From positions 32,001 through 96,000 of IMG/VR virus record IMGVR_UViG_2757320919_000001: a DNA stretch of 64,000 nt. One strand, written 5' to 3'. A program made the translations under genes and the position numbers. The notes under the pieces were generated by a model that saw only the letters and a list, made by a program, of their open reading frames with translations, ran no database searches and had not been told where the DNA came from. The stretch is from a virus. Its lineage: Duplodnaviria > Caudoviricetes. The number at the start of each line of letters is the position of its first letter. Position 1 is the stretch's first letter. Shown here in pieces: positions 1 to 64,000 of the stretch.

Positions 1-981
1 TTCTACTTTAGGTACTTCTTTTAAAATGCATTTTCTAGCCATTATCTTGTCTGATTTTCCTAATTTGTTGTTTATAATACTAGTCCATATTTCTTTCTTA
101 TTGTACCATGAATGTTCAAAAATGTGTAGAAGATGAATACCTTTACTCTCACATTTTAGTGTTTTATCTAAATGATAGTCTTTACCTTTTCCATTACTTT
201 CAGAATGCCAGTAGTCTCCATTACACTCTATTGCTAAGTTATACTTTGGTAAATAAAAATCAAGTTCTTTATCACCTAATACTGAGTAGTCATTTTCTAT
301 ATAGTTATCTAGTAAATTAGATACTTCTTTTTCAAATGAGCTAGTAGAAGGGTTGCATGTAGGACATATTATTTTACCTTGTTTAAAGTTACCATAAGTT
401 CTATTAAAAATATGTCCTTGTATACATCTTACTTTTAATTCATCAGCTAAATTATTTGAAATTATTTCATATCCTAGATTGTTTATATAATTTACTTTAT
501 TAGTATCTTTACATTTTGGACAAGTTGTAAAACCATCTTTGAACTTCCCAAATGCTCTTTTAAAAACATGTCCATTTGAGCATCTTACTTCTAATCCCTT
601 AGATAGATTTTCTGAAACAACCTCATATCCCAAATTATTTAAATAATCTAATTTATTTCGAATATCACATTTAGGACAATTAATTTTGCCATTTTTAAAA
701 TCACCAAATGCTCTTTTAAAAATATGACCTTTTGGGCATTCTACATGTAAACTATCTGCTAAGTTTTCTGAAACCGCTTTATAACCTAAATTATTTAAAT
801 AGTTTAATTTTCCTAGTCTATCACATTCAGGACAATTTACAGAACCTCTTTTAAAATCATCAAACATCCTTCCAAAAATATGGCCATGTTTACATTCAAC
901 TTTTAAACTTTTGGATAAGTTTTCAGAAATAGCTTTATATCCTAAATTGTTTAAAAATATTATTTTTTCGTGGTTAGTCAT
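1..981 (-). CDS. hef: Hef-like endonuclease 1 (4 Zn modules + Vsr-like nuclease); runs off the window start
   Basis: Not in ORF track. Manual translation from ATG at 981: MTNHEKIIFLNNLGY...CKHGHIFGRMFDDF...ELDFYLPKYNLAIECNGDYWHSES...IMARKCILKEV, the same architecture as the other paralogs. Confidence 0.9.
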   Translation of the reverse strand, partial: MTNHEKIIFLNNLGYKAISENLSKSLKVECKHGHIFGRMFDDFKRGSVNCPECDRLGKLNYLNNLGYKAVSENLADSLHVECPKGHIFKRAFGDFKNGKINCPKCDIRNKLDYLNNLGYEVVSENLSKGLEVRCSNGHVFKRAFGKFKDGFTTCPKCKDTNKVNYINNLGYEIISNNLADELKVRCIQGHIFNRTYGNFKQGKIICPTCNPSTSSFEKEVSNLLDNYIENDYSVLGDKELDFYLPKYNLAIECNGDYWHSESNGKGKDYHLDKTLKCESKGIHLLHIFEHSWYNKKEIWTSIINNKLGKSDKIMARKCILKEVPKVE

Positions 982-1007
982 GTGTGTTCCATATTTAGGG
1001 GGATACC

Positions 1008-2054
1008 CTAAATATTATTTTCGGTAGTTTCGTTATTATTAGGCGTAACATTCAGTAAAGAATATTTATATTCTAGAGCATCTACAAAATCTTTATTGGA
1101 AAGTAGCTCACTAAAGAACTCATCAAGCTGCTCTTGTGATGCACTTTTTAAATACAACTTTTTCTCTGTAAATGGATTAAAATGACTATCACCTTGTTTT
1201 TGTAGGAATCCAAGTTCTAGCCCTAGATCAGCCAAACCTGACCATTTATTTATACCGTTATCAAAAGTAACTAAAATAGGTATTTTTGATTTTTCTTTGA
1301 TGAATCTTGATTTTTCAACATTTATTGTAAATTGCCAACCTTGTAAATTCTTTTTACTATCTTTTTCTTGTGCTTTTCCAATAATAAAAATAGTATCAGC
1401 ACTATAAATCACTCCAGTACCACCGGATACCACTTGACCACCCCACAAAGATCCAATATCATCATAAGTATGATTTACAACAACCATAGGGATCTGTTTC
1501 ATAGACAAATAAGGTGTTACAATTCTAAACAAACTCTTGATATGTTTACTTCTTTGCATATCTACAACTGATTTTTCATTTATTGCATTTTCTATTTCTG
1601 CCTTACTTGCTAAGTTTCCTAAGCTATCGAGAATTATTATAACTCTGTCACCATCTTCGATATTTTCTAATTGATTTGCAATATCAAATTTTAATTCCTC
1701 AACATTCATAACTGGTGTATGGATAACTCTTGTTGTATCAATACCAAAGTTTTCCATATAGTTTGGAGTGATACCAAATTCAGAATCATAAAAAATACAT
1801 ACAGCATCAGGATATTTTTGCAAATATGAAGCCATCATTACAAGTGCATAATTACTTTTAAAATGTTTGCTAGGACCTGCAATTACTGTTAGTCCTGGTG
1901 TTAGCCCACCATTAATCTTACCACTTAACGCAAGATTTAACATTGGTACTGGTGTTTCAACAAATTCAGTTTTACCAAAATATTTACTATTTTCAAGTTT
2001 ATTAGTTCTATCTTTTAGAGTGCTATTTTTTAATAATTTATTAATTAATGACAT
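1008..2054 (-). CDS. uvsX: RecA-like recombinase UvsX
   Basis: Walker A variant AGPSKHFKS, FYDSEFG, DSLGNLASK and SGGTG motifs typical of T4 UvsX. Confidence 0.95.
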   Translation of the reverse strand: MSLINKLLKNSTLKDRTNKLENSKYFGKTEFVETPVPMLNLALSGKINGGLTPGLTVIAGPSKHFKSNYALVMMASYLQKYPDAVCIFYDSEFGITPNYMENFGIDTTRVIHTPVMNVEELKFDIANQLENIEDGDRVIIILDSLGNLASKAEIENAINEKSVVDMQRSKHIKSLFRIVTPYLSMKQIPMVVVNHTYDDIGSLWGGQVVSGGTGVIYSADTIFIIGKAQEKDSKKNLQGWQFTINVEKSRFIKEKSKIPILVTFDNGINKWSGLADLGLELGFLQKQGDSHFNPFTEKKLYLKSASQEQLDEFFSELLSNKDFVDALEYKYSLLNVTPNNNETTENNI

Positions 2055-2055
2055 T

Positions 2056-2292
2056 TTAATCCTTTCTAAATTTCTTAATATCTATAACAACATGATGCTG
2101 GCTTACATTTTCTTCATTTATCGCCTCCATAATAAAATTATATACTTCTTTTGATGTTTTATGTTTAATTGTAAACTTGTACTCTTGCAGCCCACATTTA
2201 ATAAATACAATATTAGATGAATCGTCTTTAATTACACTAAATGAGTCTATTTTGCTGACAAAATATATGTTATCATCATTAATAATAACCAT
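2056..2292 (-). CDS. hypothetical protein
   Basis: 78-aa ORF with AAGGA SD, downstream of an early promoter. Confidence 0.7.
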   Translation of the reverse strand: MVIINDDNIYFVSKIDSFSVIKDDSSNIVFIKCGLQEYKFTIKHKTSKEVYNFIMEAINEENVSQHHVVIDIKKFRKD

Positions 2293-2323
2293 TTTATTCC
2301 TTTCGTATAATAAATTTAAGAAT

Positions 2324-2356
2324 ATTATATTACAAATATTCTTAAATATTACTTAA
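2324..2356 (-). promoter_or_regulatory. sigma70-type early promoter TTAAG-N6-TTAAG-N11-TATAAT
   Basis: TTAAG TAATAT TTAAG AATATTTGTAA TATAAT; the motif recurs about 15 times upstream of genes. Confidence 0.8.
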
Positions 2357-10308: not shown

Positions 10309-11625
10309 TCATAATCTTTCAAATAATTTATTTATATCATCCAACCAAATATCTTTAACGTGTTTTTGTGATAACTCATTAAAACTTTGTTGCAAACCAT
10401 TCAACTGTTCATTCAAACTATTTATGCTCTCTTCACTTAATGAATATAAAGGCATATTCATAAGTGTATCAATATTATCAACTATGCCTATATTATTTAT
10501 TTGTTTAATAATATCTTCTTTTTTCTTTCTTTCAAATATAACCTTTTTATCCAAAACTGCTTGAATGAATTTTATTTTGTTACTAATCAATTCAATTTGG
10601 TCTGAATATTTAGATAATTTATATTGTTTTCTCTTTTGTATATACTCTAATTTAACATCTATATATTCTTTTAAAATCTCAATCTCATCTTTATAGGTTT
10701 TAATGAAATTGTTTCTATCAGCACAAGTAAAGTTTTCAGTGTCAGTTGTTTCTATTCCTAATAATTTATGAATATTTTGATTATTCCAAAAATCTCCACT
10801 TACATTTATTACATATTCAAAATTGTCACCTAGTGAGTAGTCTTTATAATCTTTTATTATTTTTTTCTCTTTTAGTGAGTTAAAATGTATTAACATACTC
10901 TCATTAGTAGCATAAGGTGTTGTTTCTGTTATTTTTAAATTATAAGTGTCTATTTTTTCATAAACACCTTTAAATTTCCATTGTTTTTTACCATGTTCTG
11001 TATTAAGTAATTCAACAGTACCCTTATAACCTTTAAAATATGGGACCAGTGGTTTTGGTTGTTTGTTATCTAAAATATCTTTAATAGCTTGTTTAACATC
11101 TTCAGCACTTCTTTGCATTATATTTTGGGCAAAACCCACACCCATACCGTTATTGTTAATTAATAATATTAATGGTAAAGTAGGTAATAGGAACCTTGGT
11201 TCTATTTTTTGCCCCTCAAAATACTGATGATCTAAAATCTCTTCATCGTCTTTATTGAATAAAAGATCATAATAATCTGATTTTTTTATAGAAGAATATC
11301 TTGGTTGAGCTGATGTTGGTGAAGTCCTACATCCTATAGCTGATAATGGTTTAAATAATGGTAATGTAACAGGACCACAATCAAAATCTCTTGCAAAATT
11401 TGTAATTATATCAGGTAAAATATCTTCATTATGCAAATATTGTGATTTAGATGCTATTTCTGACTTTAATGTTGAAACTTTTTTATAATTAGCCAAGTCT
11501 TTACTAAAATAAACTATTTTACGACCTGAATTTTTGAACCCATCAATTAAACTTGCTATGCTTCTAATGTTATCATATGAAGCATATTGACATAAATTAT
11601 CATTAAATAATGTATTAATATTCAT
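10309..11625 (-). CDS. 52: DNA topoisomerase II medium subunit (gp52, GyrA/ParC-like)
   Basis: IDGFKNSGRK, YLH, catalytic SAQPRY, EPRFLLPTLPLILL, GMGVGFA. Confidence 0.95.
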   Translation of the reverse strand: MNINTLFNDNLCQYASYDNIRSIASLIDGFKNSGRKIVYFSKDLANYKKVSTLKSEIASKSQYLHNEDILPDIITNFARDFDCGPVTLPLFKPLSAIGCRTSPTSAQPRYSSIKKSDYYDLLFNKDDEEILDHQYFEGQKIEPRFLLPTLPLILLINNNGMGVGFAQNIMQRSAEDVKQAIKDILDNKQPKPLVPYFKGYKGTVELLNTEHGKKQWKFKGVYEKIDTYNLKITETTPYATNESMLIHFNSLKEKKIIKDYKDYSLGDNFEYVINVSGDFWNNQNIHKLLGIETTDTENFTCADRNNFIKTYKDEIEILKEYIDVKLEYIQKRKQYKLSKYSDQIELISNKIKFIQAVLDKKVIFERKKKEDIIKQINNIGIVDNIDTLMNMPLYSLSEESINSLNEQLNGLQQSFNELSQKHVKDIWLDDINKLFERL

Positions 11626-11646: not shown

Positions 11647-11679
11647 ATTATATAACATTTTAACTTAAAATTTCCTTAA
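11647..11679 (-). promoter_or_regulatory. early promoter embedded in the last codons of Hef 2, driving gene 52
   Basis: TTAAG GAAATT TTAAG TTAAAATGTTA TATAAT overlapping WVKEILS*. Confidence 0.75.
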
Positions 11680-13285
11680 CCCAAACACCTTGACCGCAGT
11701 CCCATATTCTATAGTATCCATTTTCCACCATGTTCTCATATTCTGTCTTATTTGAATCAAATATTTCTAATTTATCTTTTAACAAATGTTTCATAAATTG
11801 CTGTCTGCTATAACGAGTATTATTTTTAAAATAAAAATAACCTGGTTTAGAAAAATGGCTAAATGTGAATCCAAGCTTCAAATATATGCTTCCATCAGAA
11901 TAAAGTCTATCAGAATAACTAATAAGACTTCCTTTATTGTGTTTATGAAAATGTTTTAATAACCTAGAAGCACCACCTATAACATTTATATTTTTCTTAG
12001 TACACAATCTAATTAACTCCCAGTCATACTTATCTGTGAACCTTGGTTTGCCAAAACTCATAAGACAAACTAGTTCATTATTAAAGTATAATCCATAACA
12101 AATTGAGCTACCAGTGAAGCCTTGGAGATGATTTGTGTTTAAGAATTCTTTCTCTTCTATTTTAGGTACTTCTCTTAAAACACATTTCCTTGCAAATATT
12201 CTTTCTGATTTTCCTAGTTTGTTATTGATGATGCTAATCCAGATATCTTTCTTTTCATTCCATGATGATTCGAATATATGAATAAGCTGAATATTTTTCT
12301 CAGCACATTTTTCTGTTTTAGTTAGATGATATTTCTTATCTTTATTCATTGATTCACTATGCCAAAAATCACCATTACATTCTATTGCTAAGTTATGTTC
12401 TGGCAAGTAAATATCTAGTTCTTTTCCATTTAATATTTCCCAGTTATTAGTTCCACCTGTTAATTCCCTAACTTCTTGCTCGAATGTGCTAGAGTTTGGA
12501 TAGCAAAACGGGCATAAATGATGACCTTTTGAAAAATTACCAAATGTCCTTTTAAATACATGACCTTGCTGGCATTTTACTTCTAAATTATCCGCTAAGT
12601 TATCAGACATAATTATAAACCCTAGACTGTTTAAATAAGTATTTTTATTTTCTGCTTCACATATAGGGCAGAATTGCTGTCCATTTTTAAAGCTGTTAAA
12701 TGTTCTTTTAAATATATGTCCTTTTCGGCATTTTATTTCTAAGTCATTAGTTATATTATTAGATAGTATTTCAAAACCCAAATTGTTAATAAAATTATGT
12801 TTATTATTTATTTCACATATAGGGCAACTAATGTGGCCATTTTTAAAACTCTTATATGGACGCTTGAAAATATGATCTTTCTCACATTTTACTTCTAAGC
12901 TAGTTCCTAAATTGTTAGACATAATCTTAAAACCTAATTCTTTTAAGAAATTATGCTTTTCTTTTTTCTCACATTCAGGACAACTTAAAATACCATTTTT
13001 AAAACTACCAAATGTTCTTTTGAAAATGTGTCCTTTTTGACATTTTACTTCTAGCTTTTTTCCTAAGTTTTCAGATATAGGTTCAAAGCCTAAACTATTT
13101 AAAAAAGTTATTTTTTGTTCTATTTCACATGTAGGGCATACTGTATATCCTTTTTGAAAATCATAAAATTCTCGCTTAAATACATGCTCTTTGGAACATT
13201 TTACTATTAAATTAGTAGTTAGATTCTCAGATATTACTTGAAAGCCTAGAGTATTTAAATACTCTATTTTTTCTTGATTTGTCAT
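11660..13285 (-). CDS. hef: Hef-like endonuclease 2 (5 Zn modules + Vsr-like nuclease + Mom/GNAT-like domain)
   Basis: CxxxH...CPxC repeats, ELDIYLP..LAIECNGDFWHS, WELIRLC, SYSDRLYSDG; start at MTNQEK chosen by analogy with paralogs. Confidence 0.9.
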   Translation of the reverse strand: MTNQEKIEYLNTLGFQVISENLTTNLIVKCSKEHVFKREFYDFQKGYTVCPTCEIEQKITFLNSLGFEPISENLGKKLEVKCQKGHIFKRTFGSFKNGILSCPECEKKEKHNFLKELGFKIMSNNLGTSLEVKCEKDHIFKRPYKSFKNGHISCPICEINNKHNFINNLGFEILSNNITNDLEIKCRKGHIFKRTFNSFKNGQQFCPICEAENKNTYLNSLGFIIMSDNLADNLEVKCQQGHVFKRTFGNFSKGHHLCPFCYPNSSTFEQEVRELTGGTNNWEILNGKELDIYLPEHNLAIECNGDFWHSESMNKDKKYHLTKTEKCAEKNIQLIHIFESSWNEKKDIWISIINNKLGKSERIFARKCVLREVPKIEEKEFLNTNHLQGFTGSSICYGLYFNNELVCLMSFGKPRFTDKYDWELIRLCTKKNINVIGGASRLLKHFHKHNKGSLISYSDRLYSDGSIYLKLGFTFSHFSKPGYFYFKNNTRYSRQQFMKHLLKDKLEIFDSNKTEYENMVENGYYRIWDCGQGVWVKEILS

Positions 13286-13295: not shown

Positions 13296-14648
13296 CTATA
13301 AGTTTTCAATATTAAATGATTTTGTACTTAATATTTGCTTTCTAAAATCAATACCATTATCTGACATCCACTGCTCTAGAACTTTTTCATCATTATCTTT
13401 CCACTCAATTTTTTCTAAGCAGTTATCTATACCATCTTTTGCAAATACTATTCTATAATTAGCTGCAGACCAACTTCCTAACCCTTTCATGTATATAACT
13501 TCAGCATTTTTAGGTAAATTATCTTGGTCTTTTTGATATTCACCTAATGTATAGTACCATTTAATTAATTTATCATTTTGCAATACTGAAATAATAGGTG
13601 TTTTTAATCTATACACTCTACCTTCTGTTAGTAAGTTTGGCTGTAATTTATAAACTAGTGCTGTAATTAAACATGCAATATGGTTTCCATCCAAATCAGC
13701 ATCGGTAGCTATTACCATGTTTTCATATTTTGTTTCAGGTAACCCTAAGCCCATAGCTTCTACAATATCCATAACTCTTTGATTTTTTAATAATTGTGCT
13801 GTAGAACATTTTAAAGCATTTTGTAATTTACCTGTTAAAGGTAAGAAACTACTACAATCTCTACCAACTGCTTGTATTAAAGAAGAAAGTGCGCTATCTC
13901 CTTCTGCTATATACATGAATTTAGGATCTTTAGTATGTTTAGTAAATTTAGGATTAAATCTTTCTTTAGCTTCTTTTCTTTCAAAGGTATTTTGTTTTCT
14001 ATTTTCTAATTCTTGTTGAACTTTATATAATTCAATTATTGGGTCTTTAATGTGTGTATTTTTGAATAATAGTTCAGCAAAATCAGTATATTTTAGTGTA
14101 GGTATTCCTAATTCGGTTATAGTATTCTTAATTTCTTCTTTTGTTTGGCCTCCACCAAATCTTAGATTCTTTTTATTTTTAAGAATTAGAATGACACCTA
14201 TCCTGCTTTTTACAGCTGTGTTTGTAATTTTGGAGTATCCCTTTCTTAAACGATTACCAAAAGCATTTACAATATTATTTGAAATATAATCTAATGCTAC
14301 CCCACCTTTATTTAAATCAAGTGAATTTACAATATGCACAAACTTATACTCATCAGTAGGAAATATAGCAAGTTCTAAGTTTTCATCACTTTGCAATATT
14401 GAGAAACTATCAGAGTAATATTTTATAAATTCTTTAAACTCTTTTACTTTAATTAGTTTTCCCTGAAATGTAAATTCTATACCAGGATTTGAATAAGCTA
14501 TGTTTATAAGTAACGCATGTATATGATTTATTAAGTCATCATTAATCTCTTTTAATTCTAGCCTTTCAAAATCTGGTTTAAACTTAATTGTAACACCATG
14601 TGTTGATGAGGCAGGCGCTTTATCTTCTTTATGCTCTATTATAGACAT
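13296..14648 (-). CDS. 39: topoisomerase II large subunit (gp39/60-like), C-terminal part
   Basis: GQTKE, IAEGDSA, PLTGK, ATDADLDGNHI, YMKGLGS TOPRIM motifs; the frame is open upstream to 14771 and contains GAHGIGSK. Confidence 0.93.
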   Translation of the reverse strand: MSIIEHKEDKAPASSTHGVTIKFKPDFERLELKEINDDLINHIHALLINIAYSNPGIEFTFQGKLIKVKEFKEFIKYYSDSFSILQSDENLELAIFPTDEYKFVHIVNSLDLNKGGVALDYISNNIVNAFGNRLRKGYSKITNTAVKSRIGVILILKNKKNLRFGGGQTKEEIKNTITELGIPTLKYTDFAELLFKNTHIKDPIIELYKVQQELENRKQNTFERKEAKERFNPKFTKHTKDPKFMYIAEGDSALSSLIQAVGRDCSSFLPLTGKLQNALKCSTAQLLKNQRVMDIVEAMGLGLPETKYENMVIATDADLDGNHIACLITALVYKLQPNLLTEGRVYRLKTPIISVLQNDKLIKWYYTLGEYQKDQDNLPKNAEVIYMKGLGSWSAANYRIVFAKDGIDNCLEKIEWKDNDEKVLEQWMSDNGIDFRKQILSTKSFNIENL

Positions 14649-27256: not shown

Positions 27257-27527
27257 TATTACTCCCTTGAGCGATTATACCTCCACAATTAACAGCATCT
27301 CCTATACCACAAGTAGCTTTTGAATTTGTAAAAACACTTGTGCTACCACTTGAACTATTTCTACCATGCGGTGGTGTATCAGGGCATGCGTGTGATTGTA
27401 TTTTATCACCTAGTCTATGAACAGCTATTGAATTTGCAAAAACATTAGAACTTGCTTCTATTGTAGGTGAAGGTGGATAACAACTATGTCCTAATGCTAT
27501 ATCTCCTAATCTAGTTACTGGTGGCAT
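27240..27527 (-). CDS. 5.4: PAAR spike-tip protein (gp5.4-like)
   Basis: TRLGD..GH, VFANS..VHRLGD, GDAVNCG..IAQGSNNVF. Confidence 0.92.
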   Translation of the reverse strand: MPPVTRLGDIALGHSCYPPSPTIEASSNVFANSIAVHRLGDKIQSHACPDTPPHGRNSSSGSTSVFTNSKATCGIGDAVNCGGIIAQGSNNVFRG

Positions 27528-46594: not shown

Positions 46595-48283
46595 ATTATA
46601 TAATATTTATCCTTAAAATCAACTTAATTTAATCCAAACACCCTGACCACAATCCCACACTCTATAAAATCCATTCAATTTCATATTTTCTGATTCAGTC
46701 AAGTTTGGATCAAACTTCTCTAGTTTGTCTTTGAGTTTATGCTTCATAAATTGTTGCCTTGAATATGTCTTATTATTTTTAAAATAATAGTAACCAGGAC
46801 TAGAATAGTGACTAAATGTAAATCCAAGCTTCAAATATATACTTCCATCAGAATAAAGTCTATCTGAGTAGCTTATTAGGCTTCCTTTGTTATGTTTATG
46901 AAAATAGCTAAGTAATTTGGAAGCACCACCTATAACATTTGTGTTCTTCTTAGTACATAATCTAATTAACTCCCAATCATATTTGTCTGTAAACCTAGGT
47001 TTTCCAAAACTCATAAGACAAACTAGCTCATCTTGGTAACAGAGTCCATAACATACAGTTGATCCGGTAAATCCTTGGAGATGATTACTTTCTAAAAACT
47101 CTTTCTCTTCTTTTTTAGATACCTCTCTCAAAATGCATTTTCTAGCCATTATTTTCTTATACTTTCCTAGTTTATTGTTTATAATTGACTTCCATATTTC
47201 TTTTTTCTCTATCCAAGATGATTCAAAAATATGGAGTAATTGTATCCCTTTTTCCTTACATCTCTCTGTTTTATCTAAATGATAGTTCTTATCTTTTCCA
47301 TTACTCTCAGAATGCCAGTAGTCTCCATTACATTCAATAGCTAAGTTATGATCTGGTAAGTAGAAGTCTAGTTCTTTATCACCTAGAATCGAGTAGTCAT
47401 TTTCTATATAATCATCTAGTAAGTTAGATAATTCTTTTTCAAATGAACTAGTAGAAGGGTTGCATATAGGGCATAAAGTTATACCTTTTACAAAATTGCC
47501 AAATGTTCTCTTAAAAACATGACCTTTTGGACACATTAGTTCAAGATTATCTACTAAATCTTCTGAAACAACTTTATAACCAAAATTATTTAAATACTCT
47601 ATTTTGTTGTTTATGTTACACTCAGGACAAGTTGATATACCTTGTTTAAATACTCTAAATGCTCGTTTAAAAACATGCCCATTTTTACATTTTACTTCTA
47701 AATTATTTCCTAAATTGTTTGAGATGACTTCATATCCTAAATTGTTTAAGTACTCTAGTTTCTCTTGCTTCTCACATATAGTACAAATAATAACACCACT
47801 TTCGAATACTTTATATGGTCTTTTAAAAATATGACCATTTTGGCATTCTACTGTTAAATCATTATTTAACTCTTTAGAAACAACTTTATAGCCAAGACTG
47901 TTTATAAAAAGTAGTTTTCTTTGTCTTTCACATTCATTACAAGTTAATTGACCTTTTTTAAAATTGTTTAAAGTTCGTTTAAAAGCATGCCCATTTTTGC
48001 ATTTCACAGTCAAATCATTTGATAAGTTTTCTGAAATAACCTCATAACCTAATTTATTTAAATACTTAATATTTTCCTGCCGTTCACACTCAGGGCAAGC
48101 TGTTGAACCACTTTTAAACCTGCTAAAGGATCTTTTAAAAACATGCCCATTTTTACATTGTACTTCTAAGTCATGACCTAAACTATCCGATATAGTTTCA
48201 TACCCAAGATTATTTAAAAATTCTATTTTATTATTAACTGTCATAATAATATTATATAATAATTATACTTAAAATCAACTTAA
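46595..48283. repeat. 33-bp direct repeats (46595-46627 and 48251-48283; 31/33 identical), each a complete early promoter, flanking Hef 4
   Basis: ATTATATAATATTTATCCTTAAAATCAACTTAA vs ATTATATAATAATTATACTTAAAATCAACTTAA. Confidence 0.85.
46619..48244 (-). CDS. hef: Hef-like endonuclease 4 (5 Zn modules)
   Basis: Same architecture; ATG lies 6 nt after TATAAT with no SD. Confidence 0.9.
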   Translation of the reverse strand: MTVNNKIEFLNNLGYETISDSLGHDLEVQCKNGHVFKRSFSRFKSGSTACPECERQENIKYLNKLGYEVISENLSNDLTVKCKNGHAFKRTLNNFKKGQLTCNECERQRKLLFINSLGYKVVSKELNNDLTVECQNGHIFKRPYKVFESGVIICTICEKQEKLEYLNNLGYEVISNNLGNNLEVKCKNGHVFKRAFRVFKQGISTCPECNINNKIEYLNNFGYKVVSEDLVDNLELMCPKGHVFKRTFGNFVKGITLCPICNPSTSSFEKELSNLLDDYIENDYSILGDKELDFYLPDHNLAIECNGDYWHSESNGKDKNYHLDKTERCKEKGIQLLHIFESSWIEKKEIWKSIINNKLGKYKKIMARKCILREVSKKEEKEFLESNHLQGFTGSTVCYGLCYQDELVCLMSFGKPRFTDKYDWELIRLCTKKNTNVIGGASKLLSYFHKHNKGSLISYSDRLYSDGSIYLKLGFTFSHYSSPGYYYFKNNKTYSRQQFMKHKLKDKLEKFDPNLTESENMKLNGFYRVWDCGQGVWIKLS

Positions 48284-49017
48284 AATATTTTTCGATTTTT
48301 ACGAATATTCTTAGATTTTGATTTTTTATAGTTTTGAATTGCTTTTGCATATAATTTATCAGCAGAATATCCACCACTAAATGATTCAGCTCTTAATCTA
48401 GAAGCCACCAACCATAAGTCTTGTGGAATTATAATACCTCTTCTTGATATTCTTTTTTTAATATATAGTCTTATAACTGGTCCTAAATGCAGTGCAGATA
48501 AAAGTGGTTTAACCATTTTATATGTTATTTTTAATTGTTTATTTTTTTGAATTGCAGCTTTATTCATTTTAAACAATATTTTTATTAAAGCTATACGAAG
48601 TGGTACTGGAGTCCAATGTAAGTTTAAACCTAAAACATAACTTCTTGATGTGCTTAATACTAAAATTAAAGGAGTCTTATCATATACTTCATCTTTAAAT
48701 TTTGCATCATATTGCATAAAAATCATATTACTAAATCTAAAATCTTCTGCTTTAAAATTGCGAGTACCTTTTTTCATTAGTTGCTTAACTATATTAAGAG
48801 CAGCTTTTTCCTGCTCTTTTGTAGTTTTTTCTTTTAAAGCGTCATCAACTGTATCTTTTATTAGTTTTTTGCCAGTGTTTATATTCTTTGCTTCTTCACT
48901 TATAGATTGTGTTTCTTTTGTTTTTTTCTGATAAGATGACACAAAACCAGGTTTTGTGCTATCTACTATATTAGATTGATCAGAACCTGGCTTACTACTG
49001 GAAAAATAATTTGGCAT
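48280..49017 (-). CDS. 2: DNA end protector protein gp2
   Basis: YDAKFKD..YDKTPLI, GLNLHW, IRLY motifs. Confidence 0.8.
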   Translation of the reverse strand: MPNYFSSSKPGSDQSNIVDSTKPGFVSSYQKKTKETQSISEEAKNINTGKKLIKDTVDDALKEKTTKEQEKAALNIVKQLMKKGTRNFKAEDFRFSNMIFMQYDAKFKDEVYDKTPLILVLSTSRSYVLGLNLHWTPVPLRIALIKILFKMNKAAIQKNKQLKITYKMVKPLLSALHLGPVIRLYIKKRISRRGIIIPQDLWLVASRLRAESFSGGYSADKLYAKAIQNYKKSKSKNIRKNRKIF

Positions 49018-49019
49018 GC

Positions 49020-49115
49020 TTATCCTATTCTGTTATATAACTCTTCCATTGTTATATCTTCAATAACACCTGTTTTTTTATTTCTAACTGTAATTTTTGT
49101 GTCACCAGCTACACA
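49020..49115 (-). mobile_element. atypically short (31-aa) split intein N-fragment
   Basis: CVAGDTKITVRNKKTGVIEDITMEELYNRIG*. Confidence 0.88.
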
Positions 49116-51114: not shown

Positions 51115-52884
51115 ATGAATGTAACTGAAAAGTTAAAGTTTTTAAATGATTTAGGATACGAAGTTATATCAGAAAACTTGGGCAAACAACTACAGGTAAA
51201 ATGTAAAAATGGTCATGTTATAACCAGACAATTCTATGAATATATTCGTGGTAATACTGGCTGTGGCGAATGTGATTATCAGGCAAAATTAAACCTGATA
51301 AAATCATATGGTTTTGAAGTTATATCTAGTAATGTTGGTAATGACATGAAGTTAAAATGTGTTAATGGTCATATATTTTCAAGGGCATATAAAGTATTTG
51401 TTAAGGGCGCTACAACTTGTCCAGAATGTAATACAAATAACATACTAGATCAATATAAACAATTAGGTGTAACATTAATCAACAAATCATCAAAACAACT
51501 TACTTTACAATGCAGCAAAGGTCACACTTACACTTGTACTACAATAACAGCACAACACAAATGCCCCATTTGTATTAGAAATGAATATTCATCTTTTATG
51601 GAAGCACTTGGTTATGAAATTATATCAGAAAAATTAGGTAATGATCTTAGAGTAAAATGTAAAAATGGTCACATATTTAGTAGAACCTTTGATAATTTTA
51701 AGAATGGCCATAATACTTGTCCAGAATGTGAAAAAATATCAAGAATACAATTTATTGAAAGTAATGGGTTTAAATTAATATCAGAAAATGTCGGTGCTAA
51801 TATGGTTGTTAAATGCAAGAACGGACATACTATACATAAGAAATACACAGCGTTTAAAGCACATCCAACATGTAGTATATGTCAAAGAAATGAGAGAATG
51901 GAATTATTAAAACAATATAATTTACAACCTATTACTGATAATCTTGGTAATGAATTAATTGTTGAGTGTGAAAACGGGCATACATTTAAAAGATATTTCA
52001 ACAATATCAAAAAAGGATCTACAAAATGCCCTATCTGTTATCCATATATTAGTTCATTCGAATCAGAGATTGAAAACTTGCTAAGTGACTATGTTAAAAA
52101 TGATAGGAATGTATTGAATGGTAGGGAGTTAGATTTTTATATACCATCAGTAAATTTAGCAATAGAGTGTAATGGAGACTACTGGCACTCAGAAAGTAAT
52201 GGTAGAGGCAAAAATTATCATTTGGCAAAAACCAATATGTGTAATTTAAAAGGTATAAATTTATTGCATATATTTGAAAGTTCATGGGAAGCTAATAAGC
52301 ATATTTGGATGAGTATAATCAACAATAAGTTGGGCAAATCAGAAAAAATAATGGCTAGAAAGTGTGTTATAAAGAATGTATCTAAGTATGATGAAAGATT
52401 ATTTTTAGAAAATAATCATTTACAAGGATTTGCTGGGAGTTCAATTTGTTATGGATTATATTTTAATAATGAGTTAGTTTGTTTAATGAGTTTTGGTAAA
52501 CCAAGATTTACTAACAAATATGATTGGGAGTTGATCAGGCTATGTACAAAAATGGGATTAAACATTATAGGTGGTGCTAGTAAGTTACTTAGTTGTTTTC
52601 ATAAAAATCACCCAGGCTCATTAATAAGTTATTCAGATAGGCTATATTCTGATGGTTCTGTTTATAAACAATTGGGATTCGAATTTAGCCACTATTCAGC
52701 ACCTGGATATTTTTATGTTAAAGGTGGTAGTACTTATACTAGGTATCAATTTATGAAACATAAACTCAAAGACAAGCTAGAGAAATTTGATCCAAACTTG
52801 ACTGAATCAGAGAATATGAGATTAAATGGGTATCATAAAGTATGGGATTGCGGTCAAGGTGTTTGGGTAAAGGATATTAAATGA
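51115..52884 (+). CDS. hef: Hef-like endonuclease 5 (6 Zn modules, third degenerate)
   Basis: Same architecture as the other paralogs. Confidence 0.9.
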   Translation: MNVTEKLKFLNDLGYEVISENLGKQLQVKCKNGHVITRQFYEYIRGNTGCGECDYQAKLNLIKSYGFEVISSNVGNDMKLKCVNGHIFSRAYKVFVKGATTCPECNTNNILDQYKQLGVTLINKSSKQLTLQCSKGHTYTCTTITAQHKCPICIRNEYSSFMEALGYEIISEKLGNDLRVKCKNGHIFSRTFDNFKNGHNTCPECEKISRIQFIESNGFKLISENVGANMVVKCKNGHTIHKKYTAFKAHPTCSICQRNERMELLKQYNLQPITDNLGNELIVECENGHTFKRYFNNIKKGSTKCPICYPYISSFESEIENLLSDYVKNDRNVLNGRELDFYIPSVNLAIECNGDYWHSESNGRGKNYHLAKTNMCNLKGINLLHIFESSWEANKHIWMSIINNKLGKSEKIMARKCVIKNVSKYDERLFLENNHLQGFAGSSICYGLYFNNELVCLMSFGKPRFTNKYDWELIRLCTKMGLNIIGGASKLLSCFHKNHPGSLISYSDRLYSDGSVYKQLGFEFSHYSAPGYFYVKGGSTYTRYQFMKHKLKDKLEKFDPNLTESENMRLNGYHKVWDCGQGVWVKDIK

Positions 52885-54326
52885 ATGATAAAATAAAGTT
52901 TTTAAATGATTTAGGATATGAAGTAGTGTCAGATGATTTGTCCAAAAATCTTATAGTTAGATGTAAAAACGGACACGAGTTTAAAAGAAGGTTTTATGAT
53001 TTTCAGCGTGGCACTATAATATGTATACAATGTGATCATAACTCTAAATTATTTTATTTAAACTCATTAGGATATTCAGTAAAATCTAAACTAATAAACA
53101 ATGACCTAGAAGTTATATGTAAAAATGGACATTCTTTTAAGCGTGCATGGAGTGAGTTTAAAAATGGAAATATAAAATGTGCAATGTGTTATGAACAGCA
53201 CAAAATAGACTTTTTAAACAAACTTGGATACACAATACTTGATATTAATAAAATTAAAGTAAAATGTAAACATGGACATGTTTTTGATAGAGTATGGAGT
53301 CATTTTAACAGTGGAGTGGTAGAGTGTAAACAATGCAAGAATAGTATAAAAATAGAATATATGAAGCTTGCAGAGCTTGAACCAATTAGTGAAAATATAG
53401 CTGATGGTTTAGAATTAAAATGTAAAAATGGGCATGTTTTTAAAAGAACATTTAGTAATCTAAAGAAATGTAATGTATGCCCTATATGTCACTCTAATAT
53501 TAGCTCATTTGAAAAAGAATTAAAAGAAATACTCCCAAAATGTATAGAAAATGATTACTCAGTACTAGGTGATAAAGAACTAGATTTTTATTTGCCAGAA
53601 TATAACTTAGCAATAGAATGTAATGGTGATTACTGGCATTCTGAGCAAATGGGTAAAAATAATAGTTATCATTTGGATAAAACAGAAAAGTGTAGGGAGA
53701 AAGGAATTCAGCTTTTACAAATATTCGAGTCATCTTGGATAGAGAAAAAAGATATATGGAAGTCAATTATAAACAACAAATTAGGAAAATCAAAAAAGAT
53801 AATGGCTAGAAAATGCATTTTAAAAGAAGTACCTAAGACAGAAGAGAAAGAGTTTTTAGACACAAATCATCTCCAAGGATTTACTGGATCAACTGTGTGT
53901 TATGGACTTTATTACCAAGATGAATTAGTTTGCTTAATGTCATTCGGAAAACCTAGATTTACAGGTAGGTATGACTGGGAGTTAATTAGATTATGTACTA
54001 AGAAGAACACAAATGTTATAGGTGGTGCTTCTAAATTACTTAGTTATTTCCATAAAAATAATAAAGGTAGTATTATTAGTTACTCAGATAGACTTTACTC
54101 TGATGGATCAATTTATAAACAATTAGGGTTCGAATTTAGTCATTATTCAGCACCTGGATATTTTTATTGTAAAAACAAAATAAAGTATCCAAGACAACAA
54201 TTTATGAAACATAAACTCAAAGACAAGCTAGAGAAATTTGATCCAAACTTGACTGAATCAGAGAATATGAGATTAAATGGGTATCATAAAGTATGGGATT
54301 GTGGGCAAGGGGTATGGGTTAAATAG
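52881..54326 (+). CDS. hef: Hef-like endonuclease 6 (4 Zn modules)
   Basis: Same architecture; ATGA overlap with Hef 5. Confidence 0.9.
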   Translation: MNDKIKFLNDLGYEVVSDDLSKNLIVRCKNGHEFKRRFYDFQRGTIICIQCDHNSKLFYLNSLGYSVKSKLINNDLEVICKNGHSFKRAWSEFKNGNIKCAMCYEQHKIDFLNKLGYTILDINKIKVKCKHGHVFDRVWSHFNSGVVECKQCKNSIKIEYMKLAELEPISENIADGLELKCKNGHVFKRTFSNLKKCNVCPICHSNISSFEKELKEILPKCIENDYSVLGDKELDFYLPEYNLAIECNGDYWHSEQMGKNNSYHLDKTEKCREKGIQLLQIFESSWIEKKDIWKSIINNKLGKSKKIMARKCILKEVPKTEEKEFLDTNHLQGFTGSTVCYGLYYQDELVCLMSFGKPRFTGRYDWELIRLCTKKNTNVIGGASKLLSYFHKNNKGSIISYSDRLYSDGSIYKQLGFEFSHYSAPGYFYCKNKIKYPRQQFMKHKLKDKLEKFDPNLTESENMRLNGYHKVWDCGQGVWVK

Positions 54327-54341
54327 AATGAAGGATAAAAA

Positions 54342-56165
54342 ATGACATTAGATGAGAAAATAGAATTTATTAAAAGTGTTGGGTTTGATATTATTGCACA
54401 TAAGTCTAATAGTATAACATTACAATGTAATTATGGGCATGTTTTTAACAAGAAAGTAAGCAATATCATACCAAACACAAATATAATTTGTGATAAATGT
54501 GTTGTTATGTCTAAAGAAAAAACACTAAGGGAACTTGGATTTACACCTTTGTTAATAAACGGTGATAAATGCACTGTAAAATGTGATAAATGTAATCACA
54601 TTTTTAATAGAACTTGGTATGCTTTTAATACTCGTAAAAACACAAAGTGCCCTGAATGTGTTGAAGCAGAAAGATGGAATAACATAAATTTCCATTTAAA
54701 TAACATGAAAGTGTCATACATTTCTGATATACAAGGTAATTATACATTACAATGTAAAAATGGTCATATTTTTAAACAAGGTATAGCAGAAATCATTAAA
54801 GAAGTTGGATGTTATCAGTGTGAAGTAGAATACAGAAAAGAGTATATAAGGAATCTTAATTTTACTATTATTGAATATAATAGTAAAATATTCAATGTGA
54901 AATGCAATAAATGTAATCATGTTTTTATTAGAGACTGGAATGGCTTTTATAATAGAAAATATACAACATGTCCTAATTGTATAGAAATAGAAAAGAAAAA
55001 CCTAGCTAAAAAGCATGGATTTACTCTCACTGACACAAAATGTGATAATGACACAAGAGAGTTTATATGTGATAAATGTAATACAACATTTAAAAGAGGG
55101 TGGTCAAGTTTTACATCAAGAGGGAATAAGGAATGCTATAATTGCAAGCAACTCAGTAGAATAAATTTAGCAAAGTCATATGGGTTGGATATCATAAATG
55201 AAAATATTACTTCAAAATATACTTTTAAATGTGATAAGGGACATGTTTTTGAAAGACCTTTCACTGTTGTAGAAAATAAAAATCAAACAAAATGCCCTAT
55301 TTGTTACCCTAGAACCTCAAACTTTGAAATAGAGGTTAAAAATTTCTTAACAGAATTATGTATAAAATATATCCAAAATGACAGAAATATATTAGATGGA
55401 TTAGAATTAGATTTTTATTTACCAGATTATAATCTAGCAATTGAATGTAATGGAGATTACTGGCATTCGGATAGTGTTATTAGTGATAAAAAATACCATT
55501 TAAATAAAACTCTGAAGTGTAATTCACAAGAAATACAATTATTACACATATTTGAAAGTAACTGGATAAAGAATAGAAACATTTGGGAATCTATTATTAA
55601 AAATAAATTAGGGTTGAGCTTTAAAATATATGCTAGAAAATGTGAAATTAAAGAAGTTAATAAAATAGAGGAAAAAGAATTTCTTAATAAAAACCATTTG
55701 CAAGGATTTACTGGTTCTGCTGTTTGTTATGGGCTATATTACCAAAATGAACTTGTTGAACTTATGTCATTTGGTAGATCAAGATTTAATAAAAACATAT
55801 CATGGGAATTGATAAGGTTATGCACTAAAATAAATGTTAATGTAATAGGTGGTGCATCTAGGTTATTGAAGATATTTGAAAACAATTATCCAAACCAGAC
55901 CTTATTATCTTATTCTAATAACTTATATTCTAATGGTAAAATATACAATACATTAGGGTTTGAGTTTAGTCACACATCTAGTCCAGGTTATTTTTACTAT
56001 AAGAATGGTATGACTTATGACAGACAACAATTTATGAAGCATAAACTTAATAGTAAATTAGAAAAGTTTGATCCAAACTTGACTGAATCAGAAAATATGA
56101 AATTGAATGGATTTTATAGAGTGTGGGATTGTGGTCAGGGTGTTTGGGTTAAAGGTAGCATTTGA
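54342..56165 (+). CDS. hef: Hef-like endonuclease 7 (6 Zn modules, divergent, some C4-type)
   Basis: Mix of CxxGH and CxxC modules; ELDFYLP..LAIECNGDYWHS; WELIRLC. Confidence 0.9.
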   Translation: MTLDEKIEFIKSVGFDIIAHKSNSITLQCNYGHVFNKKVSNIIPNTNIICDKCVVMSKEKTLRELGFTPLLINGDKCTVKCDKCNHIFNRTWYAFNTRKNTKCPECVEAERWNNINFHLNNMKVSYISDIQGNYTLQCKNGHIFKQGIAEIIKEVGCYQCEVEYRKEYIRNLNFTIIEYNSKIFNVKCNKCNHVFIRDWNGFYNRKYTTCPNCIEIEKKNLAKKHGFTLTDTKCDNDTREFICDKCNTTFKRGWSSFTSRGNKECYNCKQLSRINLAKSYGLDIINENITSKYTFKCDKGHVFERPFTVVENKNQTKCPICYPRTSNFEIEVKNFLTELCIKYIQNDRNILDGLELDFYLPDYNLAIECNGDYWHSDSVISDKKYHLNKTLKCNSQEIQLLHIFESNWIKNRNIWESIIKNKLGLSFKIYARKCEIKEVNKIEEKEFLNKNHLQGFTGSAVCYGLYYQNELVELMSFGRSRFNKNISWELIRLCTKINVNVIGGASRLLKIFENNYPNQTLLSYSNNLYSNGKIYNTLGFEFSHTSSPGYFYYKNGMTYDRQQFMKHKLNSKLEKFDPNLTESENMKLNGFYRVWDCGQGVWVKGSI

Positions 56166-61061: not shown

Positions 61062-61357
61062 AAATTACCTTTATTTTGATTTAAAGTATCAACAAAAATA
61101 ATGAATTTGTCTATGTTTTCTATAGAATTTGAATACACAACATATTTACCATTATCATTTAACTTCACTAGTATACCTATATCATCATATTTTGATTGAA
61201 ACTTAAGTGATAATTTGATATTATATTTTAACTTCAATGTTTCAGACAAACTAACTGGCAGTTCTTTATTAAAATTCAAAAAAGACTCATCAAAATCTTG
61301 ATCTGTTACTTCAAATTGAAGATCTAAACTTGATTCATATAAATATTTAGTATACAT
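61058..61357 (-). CDS. hypothetical protein, possible internal head protein
   Basis: N-terminus MYTKYLYES. Confidence 0.6.
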   Translation of the reverse strand: MYTKYLYESSLDLQFEVTDQDFDESFLNFNKELPVSLSETLKLKYNIKLSLKFQSKYDDIGILVKLNDNGKYVVYSNSIENIDKFIIFVDTLNQNKGNL

Positions 61358-61847: not shown

Positions 61848-61863
61848 AAATAACCTTTTTAGA

Positions 61864-62256
61864 TTATTTATTTTTAAAATACTTTGCAAAACCAGTATAT
61901 GTATAATTAAAAAATATAGTTTCGTCTTTTGATACTAATATAAGTTTTGCATATTTTCTTAAAAATTTTGAAATCCCATCATATATTTCAGAATTACTGC
62001 CATATACTTTCTTATTGACTACATAATGTTTAATTTTAAATGATGAACATTCACCACATTTAAAAACAGCGTCCATCTCTACTCTAATAGTTGGTAATTC
62101 TTTAGAAGGTGAAGCTAAGTATATAGTACCTGAAACATCAACAACACCAGGAACTAATATTTTGCGATTTAATTTGTGTAGGTTTTTCGTAGAAACAACA
62201 TTTGCTGATAACTCTTTTGAATTTATAAATTGTACTTTCATTTTCTGTCCTTTCAT
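61864..62256 (-). CDS. hypothetical protein
   Basis: ORF with upstream promoter motif at 62291-62322. Confidence 0.7.
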   Translation of the reverse strand: MKGQKMKVQFINSKELSANVVSTKNLHKLNRKILVPGVVDVSGTIYLASPSKELPTIRVEMDAVFKCGECSSFKIKHYVVNKKVYGSNSEIYDGISKFLRKYAKLILVSKDETIFFNYTYTGFAKYFKNK

Positions 62257-62332
62257 CTGGGATTCTTTAATCCCTAATTTTTATACTGTAATGGTACCAA
62301 AATAGACTTAAGACAACCTTAAAAGTACATGG

Positions 62333-62354
62333 AAAAGGTGCAAACGCACCTTTT
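62333..62354. terminator. intrinsic terminator
   Basis: AAAAGGTGC-AAAC-GCACCTTTT. Confidence 0.75.
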
Positions 62355-63146
62355 TTACCAATTTACTTTATTTCCAAAAATATCATACCAGTCATTAGCA
62401 TTTATTTCGTTATTATCAACAAATAATTTACCTTTTCGTTGGACAACATTAAACCCAAGACCATTTAGTCTAGCTCTAGTTGTTTGTGAATTATAACCTG
62501 CTAATGAATATTTTTCATCACCATTTTTATTTTTAACAGCTATTAAATTATCGTGTAATCTTACTTCTGTATTACCTTTATCATCTACACTTACTACAGT
62601 ATTCCCATCTTTAATTGGTTTACTATTATAAAAATATAATCCTATTTTCTTATCAATTTTTCTACTTTCATTTATTGAGTTATCATCCAAATCATCATCT
62701 TCTAGGTCATCGTCTGAATCGTCTAAACCATCATCACCTTGATTGTCATCTACATTGTCCAAATCATCATCTATATCATCATCTAATTCAAGATTTAAAG
62801 TTTCAAAAACATCATCTATAAGAGTTTGTTCGTCTTCGGTAATATCTTCTCTTTCTATTAAGAAAGGTGTAGTACCATTTACTAATATGATGCATACTTT
62901 TTCAAAAATTGATATAACATAATCTTTTCCAACAACAGAACCCATTATATTTTCATCAGAGAATTCTTCCATATTTTCTAAAGCATCTTTTAAACCATTT
63001 ACTTCTGACTCATTAATAGAAATTTTTCTCTTGATATATTTAAAATATCCTTTTTCTGCAGCTTCATTTAAAGTAATACTTTTACCTTTATTCATATTTT
63101 TAGCTTTTCTTTTAACTGCTTCATTTAATGTAGTACTTTTTTTCAT
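62355..63146 (-). CDS. acidic protein with repeated L/I-N-E sites, possible prohead core/internal protein
   Basis: TLNEA x2, SINES x2 and a long Asp-rich tract. Confidence 0.55.
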   Translation of the reverse strand: MKKSTTLNEAVKRKAKNMNKGKSITLNEAAEKGYFKYIKRKISINESEVNGLKDALENMEEFSDENIMGSVVGKDYVISIFEKVCIILVNGTTPFLIEREDITEDEQTLIDDVFETLNLELDDDIDDDLDNVDDNQGDDGLDDSDDDLEDDDLDDNSINESRKIDKKIGLYFYNSKPIKDGNTVVSVDDKGNTEVRLHDNLIAVKNKNGDEKYSLAGYNSQTTRARLNGLGFNVVQRKGKLFVDNNEINANDWYDIFGNKVNW

Positions 63147-63156
63147 TTAACATCCT

Positions 63157-63789
63157 TTATATTTTGATTACTTTGTCGCCTGTACCAACAAACATTATAT
63201 TTGTGATAATTTGATCAATTTTATTTTTATCTTTAGTTGTTTTTATTATATCTATAATTTTTTCTAGAGATGGTGATTTATATTTTAATTCACTAATAAG
63301 TTTAAGTGTCTTTTCCCTTTTAGTTTCTAAATCATTCTCATTCCATATGTTTTTTAAATCATCTTTAGAAATTTGCTTTAATTTGGCTTCATCTAACTTA
63401 TTAAAAGCATTTTCTAATATAGGGTTCTTTTCACCATCTTCTATATCTTTTGCAATTTGATCAGGTGTTCCACCGTTATATAATGCTTGTGAATTAACAT
63501 CTTTCCATTCTTCAGGAGTAAGTTCTTTTTTATATTCTTTGATTACCCAAGTATCGCGATCAAATTGTTTCACATCGAAGTTGTCTTCAAGCTCTTCTAA
63601 CTTGTTAAATTTAGCATCACCACCATACATCACACAATAACCATGTCTTAATAATTTTGAATACGCACTAGCTGGTGCCTTAATACCAACATCTAAACAG
63701 TTTCTGATAAGCTGTTGGATTTCCTCATATGTTACCATTATATTCCTTTTGATTAGATTTTCCAAATTATTTATAAAATTATACAACAT
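63157..63789 (-). CDS. hypothetical protein (start probably at MVTYEE)
   Basis: AAGGA SD before an internal Met; a promoter at 63778-63810 overlaps the annotated start. Confidence 0.7.
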   Translation of the reverse strand: MLYNFINNLENLIKRNIMVTYEEIQQLIRNCLDVGIKAPASAYSKLLRHGYCVMYGGDAKFNKLEELEDNFDVKQFDRDTWVIKEYKKELTPEEWKDVNSQALYNGGTPDQIAKDIEDGEKNPILENAFNKLDEAKLKQISKDDLKNIWNENDLETKREKTLKLISELKYKSPSLEKIIDIIKTTKDKNKIDQIITNIMFVGTGDKVIKI

Positions 63790-63833
63790 TTTGGTTTAAA
63801 TTTAACTTAACCAAAATATTTATAAATAATTAT

Positions 63834-64000
63834 ATGGATAAATTAGAATATTTAAAATCATTAGGATATAACTTATTATCTGTTGAAGGTTCTTATGTAA
63901 AAGTCGAGTGTAAAAATAAACATATATTTAGACGGGCTTTTGCATCATTTAAAATCAGAAATACACCATGTCCAGAATGTGAAATAGAAAATAGAAAACA
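63834..64000 (+). CDS. hef: Hef-like endonuclease 8, N-terminus (runs off window)
   Basis: MDKLEYLKSLGYNLLSVEGSYVKVECKNKHIFRRAFASFKIRNTPCPEC; TATAAATA ends 5 nt upstream, no SD. Confidence 0.8.
   Translation, partial: MDKLEYLKSLGYNLLSVEGSYVKVECKNKHIFRRAFASFKIRNTPCPECEIENRK

Follow-up and report, generated by a model that had tools for sequence, protein, structure and literature searches.

The DNA analysed here, referred to as the window, comprises the 64,000 nucleotides from position 32001 to 96000 of IMG/VR virus record IMGVR_UViG_2757320919_000001, a single contig of 134,927 bp, and contains eight Hef genes which, in the reading we prefer and to which we give a probability of roughly 0.65, are free-standing genes of the homing-endonuclease type that belong to the EDxHD (Vsr-like, 'Hef-type') family and are built of three parts, with an N-terminal array of zinc modules as the DNA-targeting part. 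The window has a G+C content of 26% and is 87–97% identical to Fletchervirus Campylobacter phages, e.g. CP81, CP30A, F341 and PC5 (36 matching records), in which these genes are labelled "hef-7/8/9", "Hef-like homing endonuclease" or "homing endonuclease". Phage "Hef type" endonucleases have been placed in the EDxHD family by Taylor et al. (PMC3239194; this and the other papers cited by PMC number are covered here in excerpts). The eight paralogs and their architecture, an array followed by an intact Vsr-like nuclease, had been proposed in a first-pass annotation of the window and were recovered by regular-expression searches, six-frame motif and open reading frame (ORF) scans and segmentation with a hidden Markov model (HMM). 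This module HMM, built from 38 clean modules and then used to segment the Hef proteins, gave the same counts as the annotation (4, 5, 5, 5, 6, 4 and 6 modules for Hef1 to Hef7), with i-Evalues mostly between 1e-10 and 1e-29 (the weakest kept was 0.0018; an extra weak match in Hef8 with an i-Evalue of 0.74 was discarded), and all 36 four-residue words of the annotation agree with the module alignment. The whole genome encodes 12 Hef paralogs, each with 3–7 contiguous modules of about 52 amino acids (aa), 59 modules in all.

The nuclease part is related to a structurally characterised enzyme: a profile of 66 Hef relatives matched the catalytic domain of I-Bth0305I (3r3p_A) with E=7.1e-9 over 90 residues, and the nuclease motif ELDxYxP..LAIECNGD[YF]WHS, as previously described, was seen in Hef1 to Hef7. 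Six residues (E291, D293, E304, H311, H322 and K325 in Hef4 numbering) are conserved in all 12 paralogs and D308 in 10, with Val in two paralogs outside the window; the matching of conserved residues to the letters of 'EDxHD' is an alignment-based assignment without a published mapping. In these two out-of-window paralogs (window-equivalent positions 68295–69599 and 78197–79639) NGDYWHS has become NGVYWHS; Val likewise occupies this position in the I-Bth0305I chain of 3r3p. Pfam returned MTES_1575 and Vsr matches for the nuclease, both below cut-off, and PHROGs assigned the Hef proteins to "HNH endonuclease" and "homing endonuclease" families. A third domain follows the nuclease in 11 of the 12 paralogs: the C-terminal 150 residues match the PHROG "Mom-like DNA modification protein" (E=1.7e-7), and the best PDB match of the Hef4 model in Foldseek was phage Mu Mom (8bv8_A, E=1.1e-5), followed by many GNAT acetyltransferases, these Mom/GNAT matches stemming from the C-terminal domain. 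Pfam Mom matches came from relatives alone (P0054, 28.7 bits; cut-off 27.1), the Hef proteins themselves giving none. Between paralogs, identity amounts to about 35% in the arrays, 68.5% in the nuclease and 79.2% in the Mom-like domain.

The same modules are found in front of other nucleases. Of 8000 candidates scored in a search with Hef4, 862 proteins reached E<=0.001, many of them sharing just the nuclease and Mom-like half, behind DUF7487, DUF723 or DUF4379 N-terminal domains. The module profile, searched against 1.84 billion representatives, matched 4250 proteins at E<=1e-3, of which 1173 reached E<=1e-10, and individual proteins had as many as 15 matched stretches. Among the best 150 module relatives, 40 carry a Hef-type nuclease as judged by a purpose-built HMM and 110 do not; among the 86 with a tail of 95–190 residues after the last module, 32 have the Hef nuclease and 54 are mixed, showing HNH-like and restriction-endonuclease-like motifs by eye. 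A Pfam scan of 92 of the best 150 relatives (300–1000 aa, in list order up to 49,000 residues) found DUF4379 in 72, the CapR homology domain in 59, MTES_1575 in 10, DUF2726 in 9, Mom in 4, and HNH, MUG113 and DUF559 in 2 each. Arrays of one kind joined to several nuclease types are what is expected of a portable targeting part. On the Hef arrays themselves, Pfam gave weak zinc-ribbon or DUF4379 matches only, the whole-protein DUF4379 scores being 28.0 bits for the Hef1 fragment (cut-off 24.5), 23.3 for Hef5 and 13.4 for Hef6, with no match for the other four. When the Hef module profile was aligned by hhalign with 12 DUF4379 repeats of the relative P0141, the match reached a probability of 97.2% (E=3.3e-11) and spanned the zinc half only (columns 23–52), leaving the N-terminal half (KxxFLNxLGYxxIS) unaligned. 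Distant DUF4379 repeats (in P0141 and others) likewise have a conserved Arg followed by a variable, a hydrophobic and two variable residues, and the short helix of these proteins is four residues longer than that of the Hef module. From sequence comparison, the Hef modules thus appear to be diverged relatives of the DUF4379/CapR treble-clef-like zinc fingers.

Part of this picture is already in print. CapR, a repressor of a phage satellite (PLE), derives from N-terminal domains of ICP1 homing endonucleases, and its zinc finger binds a specific promoter probe, binding being abolished when four cysteines are changed (PMC8096241). According to Barth et al. (PMC10055350), 200 of 229 T5orf172 homing endonucleases carry zinc fingers of the CapR, DUF723 or DUF4379 type, often several, arranged as "beads on a string"; target recognition by the domains jointly was proposed and inter-repeat recombination was shown. 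Phage homing nucleases whose zinc-finger targeting domains are repeated and shuffle are thus already known. The earlier statement that no such code had been described was too strong in view of the published family placement of Hef-type enzymes (PMC3239194), the specific probe binding of CapR (PMC8096241) and the modular zinc-finger targeting proposed for phage homing endonucleases (PMC10055350); a residue-level code was not found in our literature search, which covered excerpts and listings. Within that scope the search also brought up no arrays of this kind on Vsr-like Hef enzymes and no determinants at the level of single residues. What is new here is the pattern at columns 37, 39 and 40 at the start of a helix, its constancy among orthologs, the sharing of these residues among nuclease-proximal modules and the in-register recombination of arrays.

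Four candidate zinc ligands, recognised by their spacing, are present in 59 of the 59 modules. The CHCC arrangement reported earlier holds for the majority, 52 modules having C-x3-H...C-x2-C, but is not the rule, the other seven having C-x2-C...C-x2-C; in the column alignment C28, C48 and C51 are invariant and H32 occurs in 54 of 59 modules. The mean net charge per module is +2.9. The residues following the conserved Arg, which had been singled out as the variable ones, are indeed among the most variable (3.37, 3.19 and 3.08 bits of entropy for columns 37, 39 and 40), but they are not alone, with columns 45 and 47 reaching 3.56 and 3.50 bits, column 18 reaching 3.25 bits, and columns 22 and 23 also varying. 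Among 58 modules of the genome 52 distinct 37/39/40 triples were counted, and likeness at these columns is almost unrelated to overall module similarity (Spearman rho 0.09), which makes common descent of whole modules a weak explanation for shared 37/39/40 residues. The 12 nuclease-proximal modules nevertheless share 0.85 matches per pair at these columns versus 0.30 for other pairs (permutation p=0.0004), an excess that is seen at equal scaffold identity. The [TY][FY]xN word described as usual for the module next to the nuclease was found in five of the seven complete arrays of the window, but in just 6 of the 12 paralogs genome-wide. Hef2 and Hef4, for instance, agree in having PYK in module 3 and TFGN in module 5.

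Structural modelling places these columns at the start of a short helix. The AlphaFold2 model of Hef4, made from a 66-sequence alignment, had a predicted local distance difference test score (pLDDT) of 91.9 and a predicted template modelling score (pTM) of 0.61, and a second model had a pLDDT of 91.7. In both models the N-terminal part of the module consists of a helix (columns 1–10), a short strand, a loop and a hairpin with C28 and H32, and the C-terminal part of a five-residue helix (columns 38–42), a loop and a long helix starting from C48-P-x-C51, an order of elements that makes the zinc site treble-clef-like. Flexible linkers are absent from the array, because the long helix runs unbroken into columns 1–10 of the module that follows. 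The short helix has column 37 as its N-cap, and its first turn includes columns 39 and 40; the conserved F38 and F41 are presumably buried in the predicted fold, which would put columns 37, 39 and 40 on other faces of the helix. K35, R36, K42 and K43 are conserved too. C2H2 zinc fingers have a beta-beta-alpha fold, measure about 28 aa and carry their two His on the recognition helix. The helix-start placement suggested in the first-pass annotation is thus reproduced by the models but the likeness to C2H2 fingers is not: the Hef unit is 52 aa long with ligands in the order C, H (or C), C, C, none of them lies on the short variable helix, and the second ligand pair starts the next long helix, which rules out a C2H2-like fold. 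Searched alone against the PDB with Foldseek, the module gave 0 matches at E<=0.001 among 430 at E<=10, and the best match of its sequence profile to the PDB had E=0.22, i.e. no solved relative.

To follow individual modules among orthologs, Hef loci were gathered from eight named Fletchervirus genomes and combined with the 12 genes of the window genome, giving 96 proteins. ORFs were kept if complete in the locus and at least 330 aa long, truncated or edge-cut copies being dropped, so that a missing entry can mean a broken gene. PV052264 and PV052266 were left out of the ortholog set, their coding regions being annotated in many small pieces; these two records (PV052264.1 and PV052266.1, loci L024 and L026) are 91–97% identical to the window and have Rountreeviridae/Minhovirus in their taxonomy line, and the fragmented genes suggest frameshift-rich assemblies or an annotation problem. 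The arrays fall into 14 families and two singletons. Four families are present in all nine genomes with the same or allelic arrays and the others are patchy, 10 of the 16 families or singletons lacking a complete copy in at least one genome.

Across phages, members of a family have near-invariant words at columns 37–40, and these words differ between families and between modules. Minimum nonsynonymous to synonymous changes (N:S) within module lineages were 16:33 at columns 37/39/40, compared with 112:82 at nine other high-entropy columns (Fisher p=0.002). In another run the ratio at columns 37/39/40 was 12:32, a difference attributed to a tie at the Hef4 locus (four 5-module and four 9-module members) that was broken differently. 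Columns 22 (1:6) and 21 (4:9) are constrained like 37/39/40, and columns 33, 3, 5, 10 and 47 change freely within lineages. The residues after the Arg had been called hypervariable; they do vary between paralogs, but among the orthologs of the nine genomes they are near-fixed and conserved rather than diversifying, and the arrays are stable and specific to their lineages. The ortholog constancy and the low N:S rule out that these residues are hypervariable or under diversifying selection at present. A reading of the long zinc helix (columns 50, 52 and 1–6) as a P-box-like element is unlikely, its columns changing freely within orthologs (21:7 at column 3 and 19:8 at column 5). The pattern at columns 37/39/40 looks like the signature of positions that matter for something lineage-specific and would fit specificity determinants; support for the idea that the helix-start residues set specificity is real but indirect.

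The arrays themselves have been rearranged module by module. At the Hef4 locus a 5-module allele is found in the window phage, CP81, CP39 and F336, a 9-module allele in CP30A, F341, Los1 and QDYZ, and PC5 has one with 6 modules. Modules 1–3 of the 5-module form followed by the 6-module form make up the 9-module form: the first 767 nt of the 9-module gene match the window Hef4 (89.6%) and nt 481 to the end match the PC5 gene (91.6%). The PC5 protein corresponds to the 9-module protein minus exactly 156 residues, and it begins with a hybrid module in which the crossover falls within the conserved ...CKNGHVFKR, immediately ahead of the variable word. Whole genes have also come and gone. Hef5 is missing from CP81 and CP30A, with boundaries in about 69 bp common to the Hef5 and Hef6 5' ends. 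Hef7 is missing from F341, QDYZ and CP39, where the array of Hef6 continues into a C-terminal half that adjoins the tail sheath gene downstream; a complete Hef7 ortholog is present in three of the eight other genomes, and in CP30A there is a gene of 606 aa with a different array. The empty-site analysis of Hef5 and Hef7 yielded no target, the boundaries lying inside sequence common with the neighbouring paralog. Given the identities of about 35% in the arrays and of 68.5% and 79.2% in the nuclease and Mom-like domains, array cassettes seem to have been exchanged in front of the conserved back half, and the comparison suggests that arrays diversify by in-register module recombination rather than by rapid point change.

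In the mechanism that we propose, each array would bind an extended, asymmetric DNA site beside the cleavage site, the exposed residues at columns 37, 39 and 40, probably with loop columns 21–22, would give lineage-specific contacts, and the nuclease would then cut, after which recombinational repair would copy or maintain the Hef gene. Deoxyinosine has been reported to replace deoxyguanosine in Fletchervirus phages (NCTC 12673 and F336; PMC8306585, citing Crippen et al. 2019), and any Hef target would therefore be read on modified DNA of 26% G+C. DNA binding by the modules, the contact residues, cleavage and homing are what we infer; the architecture, homologies, conservation pattern and recombination described above are what we observe. 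Hef genes sit between conserved replication, packaging and structural genes, and this position, together with the variable complement among the nine genomes, may be taken as an indirect sign of homing.

Several points weigh against this mechanism. In I-Bth0305I specificity comes mostly from the nuclease domains, and the N-terminal region binds largely non-specifically (PMC3239194). The four families with the same or allelic arrays in all nine genomes fit fixation by drive but fit domestication too. The N:S values are minimum-change counts from closely related genomes, made without a tree or codon model, and the 16:33 at columns 37/39/40 does not differ significantly from the 356:424 at all other columns (p=0.10). 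Where Hef5 and Hef7 have been gained or lost, the boundaries lie in sequence that the tandem paralogs have in common, and ordinary homologous recombination can account for these events with no need of homing. Finally, none of 36 single modules matched Pfam DUF4379 or CapR at E<=0.01.

A stronger form of the proposal, in which each module reads a fixed short DNA word through its post-Arg residues and arrays could be reprogrammed like zinc-finger or TALE nucleases, strikes us as unlikely. It is favoured by the regular 52-aa period without linkers, by 37/39/40 triples that are near-unique per module yet conserved in orthologs, by the viable-looking alleles that result from in-register module deletion and fusion, and by the distant DUF4379 repeats, which vary at the same places in an R-x-hydrophobic-x-x pattern. 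The variable helix is, however, just five residues long, columns 18, 22, 23, 45, 47 and 50 vary as much, so that recognition may depend on context or be distributed, modules linked rigidly by helices may fail to keep a constant register on DNA, and the I-Bth0305I precedent favours sparse N-terminal contacts. We are equally sceptical that the 52-aa modules constitute, via columns 37/39/40 with 21/22, a third natural modular protein-DNA recognition system beside C2H2 fingers and TALE repeats.

Low-specificity anchoring is the main alternative, and a doubtful one: the arrays would be DNA anchors or spacers, and the Vsr-like nuclease would mainly pick the site, as proposed for I-Bth0305I. There the dimeric nuclease domains recognise the central 14 bp, and contacts farther out are for the most part non-specific (PMC3239194), and the I-TevI zinc finger serves spacing, not recognition (cited in PMC10055350); the basic character of the Hef modules also agrees with anchoring. 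The 12 nuclease domains are, however, 50–89% identical and have identical conserved residues, in front of which stand arrays of about 35% identity, so that with arrays acting as anchors distinct targets would need another source. Nor would anchoring lead one to expect the selective maintenance of columns 37/39/40 within lineages or array lengths that range from 3 to 9 modules.

That most copies have lost their mobility and are kept by the phage as domesticated or competitive factors (excluding co-infecting relatives, or acting as repressors) seems distinctly improbable. The four families in all nine genomes and the stability of most arrays would agree with this, as would the patchy occurrence of Hef5 and Hef7, for which recombination between tandem paralogs accounts, and CapR is a domesticated relative of such DNA-binding domains (PMC8096241). 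Against it stand the nuclease residues kept in all 12 paralogs, the Hef complements that differ between phages (with 10 of the 16 families or singletons incomplete in some genome) and the location of Hef genes between conserved replication, packaging and structural genes, as is the case for free-standing homing genes. Neutral drift of exposed residues on a purely structural zinc scaffold is very hard to credit as the source of the post-Arg variation, for although the positions are exposed and several other exposed columns are equally variable, columns 37/39/40 change less within orthologs than other high-entropy columns and are shared above chance by nuclease-proximal modules.

The Hef genes are spread over the whole window. 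Hef1 (1–981, minus strand) is 491 aa long in the genome, and the window has residues 1–327 (4-module array 352–975, nuclease 49–351, start of the Mom-like domain 1–48), the 3' part preceding the window. Hef2 (11663–13285, minus strand, 541 aa) consists of a 5-module array (12500–13279), the Vsr-like nuclease (12203–12499) and the Mom/GNAT-like domain (11663–12202) and has DNA topoisomerase II subunit genes on either side (10309–11625 and 13296–14648, both minus strand; PHROG 551, and PHROG 543 large subunit positions 194–644), a setting that recalls the nuclease-associated splitting of topoisomerase genes in T4-like phages (bioRxiv 10.1101/2022.08.31.505936). Hef3 (27518–29134, minus strand, 539 aa) has a 5-module array (28376–29134), a nuclease (28073–28375) and a Mom-like domain (27518–28072). 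Hef4 (46622–48244, minus strand, 541 aa), the protein used for modelling, has a 5-module array (47459–48238), a nuclease (47156–47458) and a Mom-like domain (46622–47155) and is flanked by genes for a single-stranded DNA-binding protein and a DNA end protector. In CP81, CP39, PC5 and F336 (loci compared: L001, L025, L028 and L031) the DNA end protector gene is separated by a 354-nt ORF from a 717-nt piece of the terminase large subunit (named 'terL2' in CP81); this ORF is missing from the window phage (at 49017–49020), CP30A and F341, and the terminase gene near 49017–49020 appears to be in pieces.

Hef5, Hef6 and Hef7 form a head-to-tail cluster on the plus strand (51115–56162) within a mostly minus-strand region, over which the GC skew becomes positive (+0.26 for 52001–56000). 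Hef5 (51115–52881, plus strand, 589 aa) has a 6-module array, the third module being degenerate (51121–52041), a nuclease (52042–52344) and a Mom-like domain (52345–52881). Between the thymidylate synthase gene and the Hef5 ortholog, F336 (locus L031) has two ORFs annotated as adenine-specific DNA methyltransferase and PC5 (locus L028) two hypothetical ORFs, neither of which is present beside Hef5 in the window phage. In Hef6 (52881–54323, plus strand, 481 aa), a 4-module array (52881–53492), a nuclease (53493–53795) and a Mom-like domain (53796–54323) were delimited, and, from the coordinates alone, its first codon (52881–52883) overlaps the last sense codon of Hef5 at 52881 and the Hef5 stop codon (52882–52884) at 52882–52883. 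Hef7 (54342–56162, plus strand, 607 aa) has an array of six more divergent modules (54348–55307), three of which have a C-x2-C first knuckle, a nuclease (55308–55622) and a Mom-like domain (55623–56162). Hef8 starts in the window (63834–64000, plus strand) and ends at a window-equivalent position of about 64913; in the genome it is 360 aa long, with four modules, of which only the first (AFAS, 63834–63983) lies inside the window, and an intact nuclease motif. It has about 50 unrelated residues after the nuclease and no Mom-like domain, and this short form (360–362 aa) is kept in all nine genomes compared.

Free-standing homing endonucleases shape phage genome mosaics, and the Hef family is a dense natural experiment in how they may be targeted, with 12 paralogs in one 135-kb genome that combine near-identical nuclease halves with different arrays, 5-, 6- and 9-module alleles at one locus, and lineage-fixed positions. 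If columns 37/39/40 do read DNA, rules could be derived from a handful of target maps and would extend to thousands of related arrays on other nucleases; a compact scaffold for programmable DNA binding might be the outcome. If the reading is modular, exchanging modules would re-programme arrays of 3 to 15 modules, which in nature are fused to at least four nuclease types. Should these columns not read DNA, the family is nonetheless a record of how selfish-nuclease targeting domains evolve by in-register recombination.

Among known systems, I-Bth0305I and the EDxHD family share with the Hef proteins a homologous catalytic domain, a DNA-binding region N-terminal to the nuclease and the nature of phage-borne selfish genes. 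I-Bth0305I differs in being intron-encoded, in having two NUMOD/helix-turn-helix motifs and in lacking a Mom-like domain, whereas the Hef genes are free-standing and encode 3–7 zinc modules and an extra C-terminal domain. Phage Mu Mom (PDB 8bv8) is the best Foldseek match of the Hef4 C-terminal domain, but in Hef this Mom-like domain is fused behind a nuclease. C2H2 zinc-finger and TALE nucleases also combine a tandem array of small modules with a separate nuclease and have variable residues at set scaffold positions; they differ from Hef in fold and ligand order, the Hef unit being 52 aa long and its variable helix binding no zinc. The T5orf172 enzymes of ICP1 and others (PMC10055350) and CapR (PMC8096241) belong to a related zinc-finger group with repeated domains, and for the T5orf172 enzymes inter-repeat recombination, cassette exchange between genes and proposed modular target recognition are further likenesses. 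Their nuclease, however, is T5orf172/GIY-YIG-like and that of Hef Vsr-like; the part of the T5orf172 account covered here (PMC10055350) reports no per-residue determinants, and its domains are beads on a string with linkers, whereas the Hef modules, according to the models, abut via a continuous helix.

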